Of a stretch of 64,000 nt of DNA, positions 51,360 through 59,581 are shown piece by piece. The notes beneath the pieces were generated by a model. That model made no database searches, was not told where the DNA came from, and was given only the letters and a program-made list of their open reading frames with translations. The translations under genes were made by a program, and so were the position numbers. Source of the DNA: a virus (lineage: Duplodnaviria > Caudoviricetes); the IMG/VR virus record IMGVR_UViG_2639763196_000002, positions 1,128 through 65,127 of that record; one strand, written 5' to 3'. How positions within the stretch are numbered: the stretch's first letter is position 1; each line of letters opens with the position of its first letter.

Positions 51360-51704
51360 TCATGCCTGACCGCTGCCCGAGGGCGGCACATCGCACACGC
51401 CCAACCGCTTGGCGGCCCAGCGTTCATACAGCCCGATGGCGACATCGGCACCGGCCATCGCGGTGAGGCATCCGATGCTCCCTGCCGCCAGGACCGACAT
51501 GCCCGAAGCGTGCAGCAACATCATGGTGGAAAGCCCGCAGACCACGCAGGCCCCGGACCGAAAGATCAAGCGGCGAATCAAAGACCAGCCGCTTACCCCC
51601 GCTTTGTCGGCTCGCCATGCCTCGCCGGATATACCGCCGACCAGGGACAGCACGATCACCATCCAGATCGGCATATCAATAAGTGCTTGCTGCTCGTTCG
51701 TCAT
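51360..51704 (-). CDS. Holin
   Basis: MTNEQQALIDMPIW..., TM segments; homologous to tailocin holin. Confidence 0.88.
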   Translation of the reverse strand: MTNEQQALIDMPIWMVIVLSLVGGISGEAWRADKAGVSGWSLIRRLIFRSGACVVCGLSTMMLLHASGMSVLAAGSIGCLTAMAGADVAIGLYERWAAKRLGVCDVPPSGSGQA

Positions 51705-51723
51705 CGCCCTACCCCATAAACGC

Positions 51724-51748
51724 AAAAACCCGGCGCAATGGCCGGGTT
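51724..51748 (-). terminator. Late-leader terminator (tR'-like)
   Basis: Minus strand AACCCGGCcattgcGCCGGGTTTTT upstream of holin. Confidence 0.75.
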
Positions 51749-51801
51749 CAGTGTGGTGGTGTGTCCCGCTGCTTGCGGTCGCACCTATCGAAGATGGGTA
51801 C

Positions 51802-51830
51802 TTTTTACAGGTGGATTATCATGGCAGCAA
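51802..51830 (-). promoter_or_regulatory. Putative late promoter
   Basis: TTGCTG-17 bp-TAAAAA upstream of the late-leader terminator. Confidence 0.5.
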
Positions 51831-51928
51831 GCAGGTTTTAATGCCATGGAGCAATACGGGTGCCATACGGGTATGACGCAGGTGCAACGGAGGGACAACG
51901 CATTCAATCGGCTATCGCTTCTGGTGCC

Positions 51929-52208
51929 CTGTCTTACTTGTCCCACTATTCTGGATCGAAGTAGGACAGCTACAGACGCCTAAATACGGGGCTCTGCCCT
52001 ACTGTCCTACCTTTTTTACTTTTCTCTTGTGTATAGAGAGAAAGCTAAAAGCACGCGTGCGCGCCATGGGCGCGACTACGTGCCCGCTATGCTCATGTGT
52101 GCGTGGGGCGGGTAAAGGTTGGACAGTAGGACAGCCCAGCAACGGCGCGGCCTGTGCCTGTCCAACTGCACGTAATGGCAGCCGGACAAGGCGGGACAGG
52201 AGGACAGA
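51929..52208. repeat. GGACA(G) repeats in both orientations, putative replication origin
   Basis: About 9 GGACA/TGTCC copies around a T-rich stretch, downstream of the primase-helicase. Confidence 0.55.
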
Positions 52209-52231
52209 GGTATGCAGAGTGACGCCGAGGA

Positions 52232-52597
52232 TCATGCAGCCTTCCCCATCAGCATGCCGGCGATGGATACATGGGCATCGTGTAGTCGACGGTAATAGGT
52301 CGGCGCGCTGCAACCGCAATGAAGCATTTTCTGTGAGAGGAAGCTCTCGTGGTTGCAGTAGTGCTCCATCACCACTAGGGCTAGCTCGGGCGCCAAGTGC
52401 TTGTTGACGATCAGCTCGATATCCGCCGATTCATCCAGCAGCACCCGACTTCCACGCGTGCCGCGTATCAACTCACCTTTGCACTCCATCAGCATGGCGA
52501 TCATGTTGCCGCCACTCGGCCCGCCAGCACCGTCCGGCACAGGCGAATGCAGATCCTGCGCCCAGAGTTTGAGCATCTCGTCGATTCGCTTAATCAT
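52232..52597 (-). CDS. Putative late regulator (Q-like position, C-terminal HTH)
   Basis: IDEMLKLWA...CGCSAPTYYRRLHDAH; last gene before the late leader. Confidence 0.6.
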   Translation of the reverse strand: MIKRIDEMLKLWAQDLHSPVPDGAGGPSGGNMIAMLMECKGELIRGTRGSRVLLDESADIELIVNKHLAPELALVVMEHYCNHESFLSQKMLHCGCSAPTYYRRLHDAHVSIAGMLMGKAA

Positions 52598-54809: not shown

Positions 54810-55026
54810 AACGGGCAGCCCTCTGATCATCGACGGTCTTGCACTCAATGCAGAGCGTGCAACCGGGCTGTGCCAAACGACGAGCCTCGGGGATAGGGCC
54901 ATCGCATTCGTCACAGAACATCAGCGAATGTTGAGCCGTGTTGGACATCAGCGCCAGGCGTGCAGCGACGGCCTGATCAATGCGCTTTTGCACCAGGTCA
55001 TTTGCGAAGTCAGCGATATCAGCCAC
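54799..55026 (-). CDS. TraR/DksA C4 zinc-finger protein
   Basis: ADIADFAND...CDECDGPIPEARR...CIEC. Confidence 0.9.
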   Translation of the reverse strand: MADIADFANDLVQKRIDQAVAARLALMSNTAQHSLMFCDECDGPIPEARRLAQPGCTLCIECKTVDDQRAARYAR

Positions 55027-55537
55027 GTTCCACCCCAGAAGTCGTCTGATTGACATAGCGGGCGCGGTTGTACATGCCCAACAACCCCTGAATGCCTCGA
55101 AACACCAACTGGCGTATCTCAGCCAGCTCACGGTCATCGACCTTGCCGTCGCCAATGTGCTTGGCCCAGGTTTCGGACAAATCGGCGACCTGCCGGAAAA
55201 ACATGGCGATACCCGTGGTCAGGGTCTCAGGCATGTCGTTGGTGTACGCCTCAGCCAATTCCTGCCAGATCGTATCGCCGACAAGAGCGTGCACCGCATC
55301 GAGAATGCGGCGGTCCTTGGTCAGTTCGAGGATCTCGCCGAATTCCTGAATGTTGACGGTATGCGAGGGATGGGTGGGAGACAACTTGTGCTGCAGCGTG
55401 GTGGCATTGCGGCCGGTGGTGGCGGCGATTGCTGCGGCACCGCCGGGATAGTCCCGTGCGGCGTGGTACAGGGCTAATTCGAGCGTCAGTATTTCCTTTT
55501 GCGCTCGATCAACACAGCTTAAAGCTACTCGGCTCAT
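55019..55537 (-). CDS. CII-family regulatory protein
   Basis: YPGGAAAIA...TLQHKLSP...DGKVDDRE; downstream of cro. Confidence 0.8.
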   Translation of the reverse strand: MSRVALSCVDRAQKEILTLELALYHAARDYPGGAAAIAATTGRNATTLQHKLSPTHPSHTVNIQEFGEILELTKDRRILDAVHALVGDTIWQELAEAYTNDMPETLTTGIAMFFRQVADLSETWAKHIGDGKVDDRELAEIRQLVFRGIQGLLGMYNRARYVNQTTSGVERG

Positions 55538-55597
55538 GGCATTAATCCTACTAAGTTGCCAGTGCCCCGCGACGTGTAGTGGTGATACATTTGCCGC

Positions 55598-55862
55598 GTG
55601 GCTTGAAAGGGCCCAAACGCCGGCTAGATCTAGGGATCGAAACCGGCACCGTGCCGAGGCGAACAATCCGTTGCTCACCTCTGGCGCAACAGCTGCCTAA
55701 TCTGTGGTGGAGAAGGCAGCAACCCAAGACATCCGTGTCTTGGCAGCGCGATAAAGGGAGGTGGTTTGCATGTGGTGTGCCCTCCTACCTTCGTCGCGAC
55801 CCGACAGCACTGTGGTGGTGTGTGCCGGGAGGAACTGGGCGGCCCTTGGGTCGCCTTTTTTC
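55598..55862 (+). ncRNA. Candidate structured RNA with three UGUGGUG loops
   Basis: Extended -10 (TGaTACATT, 55583-55591), several hairpins with G-U pairs favouring the + strand, intrinsic terminator at 55846-55862. Confidence 0.55.
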
Positions 55863-56086
55863 TATGCGGCTTTTGGAACATCAAGCTCAGGAGGAAATAC
55901 ATCATCGAGCGTGCACGTAGTCCCCAATTTATTGAGTGCTACCGTAATGGCCCGGCACTCGTACAAGCCAGGAATTCGGGTACCCGACTCGTAATTACTC
56001 AACCGACTCTGAGACCATCCCAAAGCACCAGCAAGTGCCGTTTGCTTGATTCCACTACGGCTTCTGAGGGCAGATATCCTATTCAT
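55862..56086 (-). CDS. cro: Cro-like repressor
   Basis: 74 aa HTH (QTALAGALGWSQSRLSNYESG), divergent from cI. Confidence 0.85.
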   Translation of the reverse strand: MNRISALRSRSGIKQTALAGALGWSQSRLSNYESGTRIPGLYECRAITVALNKLGTTCTLDDVFPPELDVPKAA

Positions 56087-56119
56087 TAGAAGGTTCTCTT
56101 CGTGATCCTGGGCGCAGAC

Positions 56120-56190
56120 TAACAACGGTTTGTTATTTTTACAACACGTTAAGTCGTAAATCAATTACACAAATCGTGATATTTTCCACA
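56120..56190. promoter_or_regulatory. OR-like operator region with divergent promoters
   Basis: Minus strand TTGATT-17-TAAAAA (56164-56136); plus strand TGaTATTTT (56177-56185); ACA-N4-GTGAT motif shared with 57330-57372. Confidence 0.65.
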
Positions 56191-56191
56191 C

Positions 56192-56857
56192 ATGGAAACT
56201 TTAGGTCAGCGCCTGGCGCGCTATAGAAACGAAGCGAATCTCACGCAGAAAGGCTTGGCCGCCGCCTGCAATTGGCAAAACGGCCAAGGGCGTATCGCAA
56301 ACTATGAGAAAGATAAGCGCGAACCCAGCCTTGCTGATCTGCGCATGCTTTCGCTTGCCTTGAAAAAACCGCTGATGGATCTTGTCGAAGGCGACGACGA
56401 TCAAACGAGAAGCACAGCGCCAAAAATTGATGACTACGCTCTGATTCCGCAATATACAGCGCACGGCTCAGCCGGGAACGGGCATCTCAACGACCACGTG
56501 GAAATCAAAGGCGGACTGGTTTTCAGGCGAGACTGGCTCGCCCGTATGGCCTTGAGGGAAAGAAGCCTGCATGTGATTTACGCTAAAGGTCAAAGCATGG
56601 AACCCACCATCTGTGACGGCGATGTGGTCCTGCTGGATGAAGCACAGAAAGAACCGAGAGACCGACGCATTTACGCCATGCTCAAACCTGACGGAGAGCT
56701 GATCATCAAGCGGCTGGTGCAGAGCATGACTGGCGGCTGGATCATACGTAGCGATAACGAAGACAAGCGTCAGTACCCAGATGAAGCTGCTAGCGACAAT
56801 GAAATCGGCCATCTGAAAATCGTCGGGCGCATCGTGTGGCACGGCGGGGCACTTTGA
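56192..56857 (+). CDS. cI: CI-like repressor (HTH + S24 peptidase)
   Basis: HTH, SAG cleavage site, GQSMEP, IKRL. Confidence 0.92.
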   Translation: METLGQRLARYRNEANLTQKGLAAACNWQNGQGRIANYEKDKREPSLADLRMLSLALKKPLMDLVEGDDDQTRSTAPKIDDYALIPQYTAHGSAGNGHLNDHVEIKGGLVFRRDWLARMALRERSLHVIYAKGQSMEPTICDGDVVLLDEAQKEPRDRRIYAMLKPDGELIIKRLVQSMTGGWIIRSDNEDKRQYPDEAASDNEIGHLKIVGRIVWHGGAL

Positions 56858-56866
56858 CTCAAGCCT

Positions 56867-57229
56867 TCAGCTAGGTGCTACTGAGTTGAGATTGAAGAAC
56901 GCATAAATCCCTTGCTCAGTGAGATCTCCCAGAGCTATTGCTATAAGCAGCAACATGCCAATGATGCAAATCTTGGCTCTCCAGAACAGGACCATCCCCC
57001 CGATCACTCCTGGATATCGCTTAAGGTATCTGGCAGCAATATTCCTGTATTGCTTACCGCCTCCGAATACACACAACACCACTACAAATAGAAAAAACCA
57101 CGCAAACGGCTGCGGGTGCGAAAATTGAAGCGAGGTTGCGGAGAGCCCTACCGCGAATAATCCAGGCACATCATTCGCGAATCTGAAATATCGCTCCGCA
57201 ATTGCTTCGTCCGGGTCAAGCTCAAACAT
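56867..57229 (-). CDS. Small multi-TM membrane protein in the immunity region
   Basis: 3-4 hydrophobic segments, low GC, GGAGG SD, convergent with cI. Confidence 0.7.
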   Translation of the reverse strand: MFELDPDEAIAERYFRFANDVPGLFAVGLSATSLQFSHPQPFAWFFLFVVVLCVFGGGKQYRNIAARYLKRYPGVIGGMVLFWRAKICIIGMLLLIAIALGDLTEQGIYAFFNLNSVAPS

Positions 57230-57329
57230 TTCCCCTCCTAAAAAACCCAATAAATTCAAGTAGAACCAAAAGATACAGCTCGTACCTTTTTGCGCAACTC
57301 AAAACGGAACGTCCAAAAACCCCAACAAA

Positions 57330-57372
57330 AATAACAATTCGTGTTGATTCATGAAAAACATTGTGTGATATT
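57330..57372 (+). promoter_or_regulatory. OL/pL-like operator-promoter
   Basis: AACAATTCGTGTT and AACATTGTGTGAT repeats; TTGATT-17-GATATT. Confidence 0.6.
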
Positions 57373-57407
57373 CGCCTAACTCTTCCACCACAGAGCGAGG
57401 CAACACC

Positions 57408-57584
57408 ATGCACACCACAGCTACCCTGCACGTCCACCCGGCCGCCGCTAACCCCTCCCGCATCTTTGAAATCCGCCGCCTGGCGCAAGACCTCGGCTGC
57501 ACATTCATCGCGTCCAAACCTAAGCCGAAAGAACGCAACGCGCCCTGCCCGTTTGATCCAAACGGCGGAGGGCACGCGGCATGA
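57408..57584 (+). CDS. Hypothetical early protein (58 aa)
   Basis: Hand translation MHTTATLHVHPAAANPSRIFEIRRLAQDLGCTFI...GGHAA*; GAGG SD; ATGA overlap with the next gene. Confidence 0.7.
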   Translation: MHTTATLHVHPAAANPSRIFEIRRLAQDLGCTFIASKPKPKERNAPCPFDPNGGGHAA

Positions 57585-58162
57585 GCAAGTACAAACTCGA
57601 CAACCGCACCCTGGCCCTGCTCAAGGCACAGGTAAACCTAACCGAAACCTTCAACCACCTGCTGCGCGCCGAAGTTCAGCGTGAAGCCTTAGCCTTCCGC
57701 CTGAAAGTCGAGCGGCGCAAAGCAGACACACACTTCACTGTTGAGCTGGGAAGCGAACGCCACACGCTGACCCTGACCAACAGCAAAAAGATGCACCTTA
57801 AGCTTGCGGACTTCATTGAGGAGATCGTCAATGGGCCAGCCAATCCAAGCGATCCGTCGTCTATGCCACACGCAGACCGCCGCTACGGCGTGTTCGAAAC
57901 TGAACACAAGCAGCGTGTGTTCGACCTGGTACAAACCGGCGGCGCGCTGAGCCTCGACATGGGTTTTGAGCAACCTATCAACCTGGCAATCCATCGCAAC
58001 AAAACCCGCACTGGCATCACCACCATCATGAGCATCGGCGTCAAGAAGCCATTCAGCAAGTGCTTCACGGTGTGCGGCAGTGACGTGGAGATCTACTCCA
58101 TGGTGGCCGAATCCATCACTCACCTGGCAGCCGTGGCGACTCCCGCCGCGCATGCAGCCTAG
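57581..58162 (+). CDS. Hypothetical early protein
   Basis: 193 aa, translationally coupled in the early operon. Confidence 0.75.
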   Translation: MSKYKLDNRTLALLKAQVNLTETFNHLLRAEVQREALAFRLKVERRKADTHFTVELGSERHTLTLTNSKKMHLKLADFIEEIVNGPANPSDPSSMPHADRRYGVFETEHKQRVFDLVQTGGALSLDMGFEQPINLAIHRNKTRTGITTIMSIGVKKPFSKCFTVCGSDVEIYSMVAESITHLAAVATPAAHAA

Positions 58163-59131: not shown

Positions 59132-59182
59132 CAAACCAATTGGCTGCCACCACCAGCCGACATACCACCAGGAGCACACCAC

Positions 59183-59581
59183 ATGACTGCAATTCAAATC
59201 TGCGCACTGATCAGCATTGCTACTGCCACCGGCATTCTCTACTGGATCGGTTACCGAGGCGGCTTGGCAGACGGCCGAGTTGAAGGTTACGAAAACGGCC
59301 AGGACGATGGGTTTAGCTTAGGTTTTGAACAAGCCAAGGAACAATGCGCTGTTTCAATCACCCAAGCGCACGAACAGCGTCAACGCATAGAGCTACTGCT
59401 GAGCAGGGAGCCCCAGGACAGACTGACTCTTCTACTGATCGCTGAAAAGCTCAAGCTCGCTGCCGAGACCTTCAAAGCAGTGAAGTCGGAAACCCATGCA
59501 GCACAGACGCTCGCTCTGCGCGAGAAAGCCTTGAACATGGCTGGTGCAATGGATCTATGGACACAGGGGGACGCAGCATGA
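59183..59581 (+). CDS. Hypothetical protein with N-terminal TM
   Basis: AGGAG SD; hydrophobic N-terminus, then G-x-x-x-G repeats. Confidence 0.75.
   Translation: MTAIQICALISIATATGILYWIGYRGGLADGRVEGYENGQDDGFSLGFEQAKEQCAVSITQAHEQRQRIELLLSREPQDRLTLLLIAEKLKLAAETFKAVKSETHAAQTLALREKALNMAGAMDLWTQGDAA

Follow-up and report, generated by a model that had tools for sequence, protein, structure and literature searches.

A conserved RNA gene in the cro-cII gap of Pseudomonas prophages: a candidate trans-acting antisense regulator of two early genes

We analyzed a stretch of 64,000 nucleotides (nt) of a Caudoviricetes provirus (IMG/VR record IMGVR_UViG_2639763196_000002, positions 1,128 to 65,127), here called the window, and all positions below are window coordinates. 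In the 325-nt gap between its cro and cII genes, we found a gene for a predicted non-coding RNA of ~265 nt (55598-55862, + strand), which is the antisense of pR transcription through this gap. The gene and its fold are conserved in related prophages. Furthermore, three hairpin loops of the RNA (L1, L2, and L3) are complementary to the start regions of two genes of the early-left (pL) operon, and loops and targets change together among the relatives. In our opinion, the RNA is probably a trans-acting antisense RNA that represses these two genes. A first-pass annotation of the window had proposed a structured + strand RNA that pairs with early-left transcripts at translation starts, and the complements of 10-17 nt and the compensating changes in the targets described below bear this out.

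The relatives of the window locus are hosted by Pseudomonas genomes (fluorescens, syringae, koreensis, and related groups). The cII protein has 477 relatives in viral contigs (IMG/VR) and 107 in species-representative genomes, and 160 loci were obtained through it. The gap sequence was present in 159 of them at 77.6-99.7% identity, and the remaining locus begins at cII, without upstream DNA. The alignment covers at least 320 of 333 nt in 156 loci, and 3 others are cut by contig ends. In addition, the similarity among relatives stops 0-8 nt past the T-run of a terminator (query 326-333), and the cro side is then unrelated. Thus, the RNA element is a unit with cII (Pfam Phage_CP76; 55019-55537, - strand), which always adjoins it, and not with cI.

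The 146 distinct sequences of the RNA region formed alignment A1. In this alignment, an extended -10 element without a good -35 (TGnTACATT, TGaTACATT in the window; 55583-55591, + strand) is kept in 145 of the 146 relatives, and a U-tailed intrinsic terminator (55837-55862, + strand) is kept in all of them. Meanwhile, the length of the region ranges between 249 and 271 nt, and any given reading frame is open in 44 of the 146 sequences at most; the variable length and the lack of a kept frame indicate that the region is non-coding. A second set of loci came from a pattern seeded solely on the L1 and L2 loops, which at least 120 viral contigs match. Among the 80 loci taken for checking, the N-terminus of cII adjoins the RNA in 79, the -10 element is found in 79, and the terminator is found in 77. 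In the sole locus without a match to the cII N-terminus (L252), cII may be divergent or replaced.

Two side observations concern the same region. An invariant 12-mer (55555-55566) sits between the Shine-Dalgarno (SD) sequence of cII and the -10 element of the RNA gene, and it could be an activator site or a part of a cII-leader fold. We tried it as a repeated CII activator site and rejected it, with 20 matches at up to two mismatches against 9.7 expected and none of them telling in position. In addition, a 237-nt contig that spans 55588-55824 was deeper than its flanks in two wastewater runs of one study, and its ends may only reflect strain variation. Among the recorded sequencing runs with this region, none is an RNA run; contigs of four runs were placed on it, and two of the runs are labeled as probably DNA.

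To describe the fold, a curated structure of 79 pairs was tested on alignment A1. We found that 96.3% of the cells are paired across the 79 pairs. Furthermore, 37 pairs show changes on both sides vs 17.4 ± 1.8 in shuffles, and none of 500 shuffles reached 37; because the sequences share ancestry, this count and the other shuffle and permutation counts given below are not probabilities. A control with slid partners, which preserves relatedness, gave 12-19 pairs changed on both sides, yet this is still far lower than 37. The covariation of the stems and the conservation of the loops, which the first-pass annotation had named as the comparison to make in relatives, are both present (the 7-nt L3 loop is kept in 145/146 sequences).

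From 5′ to 3′, the + strand fold consists of P1, P2, P3, the L1 hairpin, P5, the long and composite L2 hairpin, the L3 hairpin, and the terminator. P1 (55600-55613) is closed by a GAAA tetraloop. P2 (55619-55647) has an outer GCCGG/CCGGC helix and an inner GATC/GATC helix; three pairs of the inner helix are changed on both sides, and this helix is deleted in 18 relatives (gap counts). P3 (55651-55687) has five pairs changed on both sides. The L1 hairpin (55693-55719) presents TGTGGTG at 55703-09. P5 (55724-55743) is an 8-bp hairpin, CCAAGACA/TGTCTTGG, in which 7 of the 8 pairs are changed on both sides. The L2 hairpin (55747-55798) and the L3 hairpin (55800-55829) carry their loops at 55771-77 and 55811-17, and the L3 stem covaries (GCAC/GTGT, GCGC/GTGC, GCAT/ATGC, and CCGC/GCGC). 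The three TGTGGTG hairpins, the 8-bp hairpin, the extended -10, and the U-tailed terminator of the earlier annotation are all present and all conserved.

The strand of the fold can be read from the balance of G-U pairs and A-C mismatches. Overall, there were 920 G-U cells vs 222 A-C cells. For example, the values were 288 and 0 for P1, 110 and 1 for the top of L3, and 221 and 2 for the terminator. The G-U excess shows that these three parts fold on the + strand, and L1 and the top of L2 carry no strand signal. The earlier statement that G-U pairs favor the + strand is thus correct for the whole and for P1, L3, and the terminator, and the inner hairpin of P3 (55661-76; A-C 70, G-U 6) is a part that fits the - strand better. 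In the window and 50 other sequences, this helix holds an A-C mismatch that would be a G-U pair on the pR-sense strand. The hairpin at 55661-55676 may be functional in the cII leader RNA, and structure may exist in both the + and the - transcript, which is common for sense/antisense pairs. Long-range pairs suggested by RNAalifold for the full gap (55555-66 with 55714-22, and the 5′ end with the L1 loop), in which neither side ever varies, were not used.

The heptamer TGTGGTG occurs in all three loops, that is, three times within 115 nt. On the + strand of the whole window, there were 10 copies of TGTGGTG and 16 copies of CACCACA, vs 3.9 and 4.5 predicted from base composition. Thus, the triplet is not a chance cluster. 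L1 reads TCTGTGGTGGA in 128/146 sequences and TCTGTGGTAAG in 16/146, and L2 reads GCATGTGGTGTGC in 139/146, GCATTTGGTTTGC in 3, and GCATTTGGTTTAC in 1. In addition, the flanks of the relatives beyond the RNA gene (317 kb) contain CACCACA 115 times and its complement 17 times; most of these CACCACA copies form a pair 27 nt apart, which was found in 40/157 loci within a 2.5-kb flank. In the window, CACCACA sites lie where the earlier annotation had placed them, at 57386, 57413, 59177, and 51752-58 (- strand). The assignment of targets can be refined. Each loop has its own partner: L1 matches a leader hairpin, L2 matches two start codons, and L3 matches a loop at 59147-53 that had been missed.

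The first target is the start of the pL mRNA. A putative pL promoter (TTGATT, 17 nt, tGATATT with TG; 57344-57372, + strand) was read from the sequence, and its -10 spacing predicts an mRNA start near 57379, about one base before a leader hairpin, CUCU-UCCACCAC-AGAG (57380-57395, + strand). L1 (55701-11) is an exact 11-nt complement of 57384-94 in this hairpin. The CACCACA at 57386-92 had been described as abutting the SD of the first pL gene; we found that it instead sits in the loop of this hairpin, 5′ of the SD. The pair of CACCACA sites lies in a conserved block, ACUCUUCCACCACAGAGCGAGGCAACACCAUGCACACCACAGC, that follows pL promoters of many kinds, and a looser form of this motif was found in 73/157 loci; in the remaining loci, it may lie farther out than the 2.5-kb flank. 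Among these 73 loci, the complement between L1 and the leader is 12 nt in 33, 11 nt in 11, and 13-17 nt in 15 (17 nt in 11), so that at least 11 nt are complementary in 59/73.

Just downstream, the first pL gene has its SD (GAGG) at 57397-400 and its AUG at 57408, and L2 (55771-80) is a 10-nt complement of 57410-19, directly past the AUG (target region 57397-57419, + strand). This complement is 10-11 nt in 39 of the 73 loci and shorter in 34. The gene encodes a protein of 58 amino acids (aa) and belongs to phrog_35204, and its PHROG families are all of unknown function. Furthermore, when the 45 nt before the leader were compared in the 73 loci, at least 23 different promoter/operator types were found to precede the same leader. 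The distance from cII to the leader is 1369-2447 nt in the relatives. A single backbone is combined here with many immunity types.

The second target lies 1.8 kb downstream at a 132-aa membrane-protein gene (phrog_28176; 59183-59581, + strand). It was scored in 25 loci, namely 24 relatives paired by position and the window. A hairpin, GGCUG-CCACCAC-CAGCC (59142-58, within 59140-59160, + strand), presents the loop 59147-53, which is complementary to GTGGTGG of L3 (55812-18) over 7 nt, or over 8 nt in another register (59147-55). Its stem covaries (GGACUG/CAGUCC, GGCCG/CGGCC, and CGCUG/CAGCG), and the complement to L3 is at least 7 nt long in 21/25 loci. The hairpin is 29 nt upstream of the L2 site. 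This site contains the SD (AGGAG) and the AUG of the gene (59170-59185, + strand), and L2 (55769-80) is a 12-nt complement of 59174-85, spanning from SD to AUG. The complement between L2 and this ribosome-binding site (RBS) is 12-14 nt in 18/25 loci. Thus, the two targets share one plan, with a CCACCAC-loop hairpin, an SD, and an L2 site on the start codon. When duplex energies were compared with shuffled targets, the two targets gave z = -3.4 (1/300 shuffles reach the value) and z = -4.6 (0/300); duplexfold ignores intramolecular structure, and these energies serve solely for comparison with shuffles.

Furthermore, loops and distant targets covary. In group A (16 distinct sequences), L1 reads ...UGGUAAG in place of ...UGGUGGA, and the change from GGUGGA to GGUAAG is accompanied by a change from UCCACC to UUACC in the leader. 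For nine loci of this group, the leaders read UUACCACAGAG and have an 11-13-nt complement to their own L1; five other group A leaders read CCUACC, CCAACC, or CCAGCC and have a complement of only 6-8 nt. L3 also changes in group A, from GUGGUGG to GUGGUGA, with the target loop going from CCACCAC to UCACCAC in 5/6 loci examined (L140 does not fit). In L2, the change from UGUGGUGUGC to UUUGGUUUGC is accompanied by GCACACCACA to GCAAACCAAA at the RBS of the 132-aa gene in 3/3 loci. This is the change in group B, which has CAUUUGGUUUGC as its L2 and GCAAACCAAAUG at the RBS of the 132-aa gene in these three loci (12/12 nt). At the first pL gene, group B reads AUGCAAACC in two loci, together with the L2 form UUUGGUUUGC, and GCAAACC at this gene accompanies the L2 change.

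The RNA and the leader are separated by the 23 promoter/operator types, and both L1 forms occur in 4 of these types. Within these 4 types, the form of the leader tracks the form of L1 and not the immunity type. Furthermore, the cognate L1-leader pairing has a mean of 12.03 nt, and 1000 random re-pairings gave a mean of 11.23 and a maximum of 11.66, so that the cognate value exceeds 1000/1000.

Several points weigh against an antisense RNA and should be noted. First, the window contains three 13-mers, two 12-mers, and six 11-mers that are exact complements of the RNA, and ~0.5, 2, and 8 are expected by our own estimate. The number of 11-13-nt complements is thus about that of chance, and no conclusion can be drawn from any one match; what counts is where the complements lie and that they are conserved and covary. 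Second, the pL leader was scored in 73 of 157 loci, which are those with the leader inside the 2.5-kb flank, and 14 of these 73 L1-leader pairs are 10 nt or shorter. For the 132-aa gene, 7/25 L2-RBS pairs are shorter than 12 nt (10, 9, and 8 nt once each, 7 nt in L158 and L151, and 5 nt or less in L141 and L128). Third, the L1 of group A retains ~10 nt of complement to foreign leaders via its 5′ side, and therefore the specificity of L1 is not clean; given the shared ancestry, each covariation may also come from one or a few events. Fourth, the inner P3 helix and the lower L2 stem fit the - strand better. Finally, the promoter of the RNA is a predicted one, and the start near 55598 is placed by its spacing to the -10. 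A consensus promoter scan of 55000-57600 called no sigma-70-like site, and the promoters named here were read by eye.

The late leader had also been proposed as a target. A CA-rich stretch just 5′ of the late-leader terminator (51752-51764, - strand) is a 13-nt complement of L3, and this match was found in the window only. We scored 30 late leaders, that of the window and those of 29 relatives. No more than 6 nt are complementary in 19/30, at least 10 nt are complementary in 2/30, and the complement does not covary with the L3 variants. In addition, the duplex energy is ordinary (z = -1.25, reached by 29/300 shuffles). We therefore rejected the late leader as an L3 target, and the site in the window is a doubtful one. 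CACCAC itself is present in 22/30 late leaders. The leader (51690-52240, - strand) is non-coding, with 69-88% identity and a conserved terminator, and it adjoins the cII-primase block in 28/29 records searched; it looks like a long late-operon leader of the pR′/tR′ kind.

If the RNA acts in trans as we suppose, the pL mRNA would be contacted at its extreme 5′ end, where L1 would kiss the hairpin loop, and at the start codon of the 58-aa gene, which L2 would cover. At the second target, L3 would kiss the second hairpin loop, and L2 would cover the SD-AUG of the 132-aa membrane-protein gene. L1 and L3 would thus supply a fast loop-loop contact, and L2 would block ribosome binding in both targets. 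The match reaches 17 nt in 11 loci, where the entire top of L1 is complementary to the entire top of the leader hairpin, as in kissing complexes that extend into the stems. Cleavage of the mRNA is possible, and opening or cleaving the 5′-terminal hairpin could destabilize the pL mRNA. An untranslated first gene could also be polar on the pL operon. In this way, the pL genes would be silenced post-transcriptionally, independent of CI and operator specificity. Moreover, pR read-through would yield a perfect complement of the RNA, which could neutralize it in lytic growth. We infer the expression of the RNA, repression rather than activation, the timing, and the polarity on the operon from this arrangement.

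A wider role can be proposed tentatively. The RNA might be a layer of immunity that does not depend on the repressor: a prophage would make the RNA constitutively and silence the pL operon of leader-sharing relatives, whatever their CI/operator type. The group A and B variants would then be RNA-immunity specificities under cross-exclusion, as in P1/P7. On induction, pR read-through would be a three-loop sponge, giving a self-resetting switch coupled to the protein switch. We regard this proposal as possible and still rather doubtful.

The same data could be explained in other ways. One explanation, which the first-pass annotation had named as its alternative, is a nut-like one: function would lie with the pR-sense (- strand) and pL-sense RNAs, and one phage protein, such as an N-like antiterminator encoded by the first pL gene, would bind their CCACCAC/CACCACA hairpin loops. 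The complements of the + strand RNA would then arise as a side effect, and loops and targets would covary because the same protein has to recognize both. The positions mirror those of lambda nutL (pL leader) and nutR (cro-cII gap), and the pL hairpin and the position in the gap speak against an antisense RNA in trans. CCACCAC-loop hairpins are also found at 57380-95 and 59142-58, the CA-rich stretch occurs in 22/30 late leaders without covariation with L3, and the helix 55661-76 fits the - strand better. However, L3 and P1 fold on the + strand only (110:1 and 288:0), and on the - strand, L3 would hold an internal A-C mismatch in 42 relatives. In addition, the element is bracketed by a conserved + strand promoter and terminator, and both L2 sites span start codons, not hairpins, yet covary with L2. 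The 58-aa protein has no Pfam family match, and no search aimed at RNA-binding motifs was made. This explanation is thus weakened, and we consider it unlikely.

The RNA could also act in cis, as OOP of lambda does. Its effect, through convergent transcription and cleavage of the duplex, would then be to lower or time the expression of cII and the replication genes, with the pL matches in a secondary part. The RNA gene always adjoins cII, opposite to pR, its predicted 5′ end is ~50 nt from the cII SD, and some of the helices suit either strand, as those of a sense/antisense pair should. A cis-antisense RNA, however, needs neither three identical loops nor distant matches, and the covariation in trans would be left unexplained. 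As the whole explanation, a cis role is improbable. Nevertheless, cis and trans roles can coexist. The RNA is exactly complementary to the pR message upstream of cII, and an OOP-like action in cis may accompany the one in trans.

In a third explanation, the region would be the 5′ leader of a CII-dependent transcript for the establishment of cI, in a position like that of lambda pRE, with the terminator serving as an attenuator and the hairpins setting how much transcription continues into anti-cro and cI. In favor of this, the promoter faces cro and cI and lacks a good -35, and the sequence upstream of it borders the start of cII, as in the geometry of lambda pRE; cI follows downstream on the same strand. 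Against this, a strong terminator is kept in all relatives, the similarity ends at the terminator, which joins the element to cII rather than to cI, the 12-mer test yielded no activator site, and the covariation with the targets is unexplained. We give this explanation little probability. For a trans-acting antisense RNA, the promoter could nevertheless be CII-dependent, with some read-through into cI; this is conceivable because the promoter sits where lambda has pRE. Finally, DNA-level sites (iterons or operators) for the neighboring primase/helicase or another DNA-binding protein would suit three identical 7-mers in 115 bp beside replication genes, but they are very improbable, since stem covariation with G-U pairs means selection on a single-stranded fold, a promoter and a terminator bracket the repeats, and the matches at the mRNA starts covary.

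The map around the RNA gene is lambdoid. CI, a repressor with an S24 peptidase domain, is encoded at 56192-56857 (+ strand), and a Cro-like helix-turn-helix protein at 56089-55862 (- strand). Past cII on the pR side, there are a DksA/TraR zinc-finger gene, a primase/VapE helicase, and a 121-aa protein in the Q position. After the latter come a late leader of ~500-550 nt with a terminator, and then the holin and the terminase. The pL operon starts at 57408 and runs rightward of cI (+ strand). Given this map, lytic pR transcription crosses the cro-cII gap on the - strand. The pL operon also encodes a phosphatase and a C5 methyltransferase, and its segment 58172-58932 carries a 94-aa KilAC/ANT-domain protein and a 122-aa PrtN pyocin-activator-domain protein (an excisionase in PHROGs). 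In addition, a 130-aa hydrophobic open reading frame at 56867-57259 (- strand) lies between cI and pL, opposite to both, and has no family match. A terminator-like site (57114-57101) lies within it on the same strand, and this reading frame may be a moron or miscalled.

The first-pass annotation had suggested a search of Rfam, and we did not obtain a family: the whole window gave no family match at the gathering score. With E up to 10 on 55300-56250, there were five chance-level matches to other families and none to the C4 antisense family. In addition, blastn of the gap against 50,697 phage records gave no match. None of the titles and abstract openings listed in literature searches reports an RNA gene at this position in Pseudomonas prophages; the gene may still have been published, for example among the 38 uncharacterized phage small RNAs tabulated with PMC12197685.

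The RNA gene is widespread in plant- and soil-associated Pseudomonas prophages, as at least 120 viral contigs match the loop pattern, and it is a candidate family for RNA databases. Lambdoid switches are taught as protein switches, with antisense RNAs in a minor role and in cis. The present locus offers a system for studying multivalent recognition by kissing loops, RNA-level cross-immunity of heteroimmune phages, and the matching of modules in mosaic genomes. Furthermore, it singles out two early genes of unknown function (58 aa, and the 132-aa membrane protein) as ones that the phage probably takes care to silence.

Several known phage RNAs can be compared with this one. PMC12197685 gives c4 as a phage antisense RNA and also names OOP, aQ, sar, and IsrK, and IsrK appears in PMC4825925 as well. 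Like C4, the RNA described here has loops complementary (7-17 nt, covarying) to two early-gene translation starts, which is a likeness of mechanism and not of membership. C4 of P1/P7 has loops that pair with sites at the ribosome-binding region of early genes, and differences in loop and target set the specificity between related phages. C4 has a length of ~77 nt and two loops, and processing releases it from the very transcript under its control. In contrast, our RNA is ~265 nt long and has three loops and four or five other hairpins, with a predicted promoter and terminator of its own. Moreover, it is encoded against pR in the cro-cII gap, its two bipartite targets belong to another operon, and it matches no Rfam model. 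Its own -10, its terminator, the different operon, and the other strand argue against C4-type processing from the leader of the controlled operon.

The CI RNA of P4 and its relatives, the CA RNA of N15 and IsrK of Gifsy-1, control early or lytic functions through short complements that are repeated in the target transcript. RNAs of this type act by premature termination or by activation of a small reading frame, and they are processed from leaders. The Rfam C4 antisense RNA family covers P1 C4, P4 CI, and IsrK. Unlike P4 CI and IsrK, the RNA here has a gene of its own and matches SD/AUG and hairpin loops, and there is no similarity in sequence or model.

According to PMC12197685, OOP of lambda is a small antisense RNA of the cII message that has a promoter and a terminator of its own. 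The RNA described here likewise has a predicted promoter and terminator of its own and runs opposite to the cII message. However, OOP covers the 3′ end of cII, and no trans targets have been described for it, whereas this RNA lies wholly 5′ of cII (which starts at 55537) and has covarying distant targets. Meanwhile, lambda nutL and nutR, with their boxB hairpins, are located in the pL leader and the cro-cII gap. Hairpins are found at the same map positions here, and the pL-sense hairpins exist and covary; in contrast to nut sites, the gap fold is selected on the anti-pR strand for L3 and P1, and half of the matched sites are unstructured start-codon regions. The plasmid pairs CopA/CopT and RNAI/RNAII are cis-encoded antisense RNAs with loop-loop kissing. 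As in these pairs, a loop meets a complementary loop and the pairing can spread into the stems, but unlike CopA/CopT, the partners here are 1.7-3.5 kb apart, with a freely exchanged immunity region between them. Taken together, the RNA most likely works like P1 C4 and P4 CI without membership in their family, given that it matches no Rfam model, and it would be a new RNA family and architecture built on a known principle.

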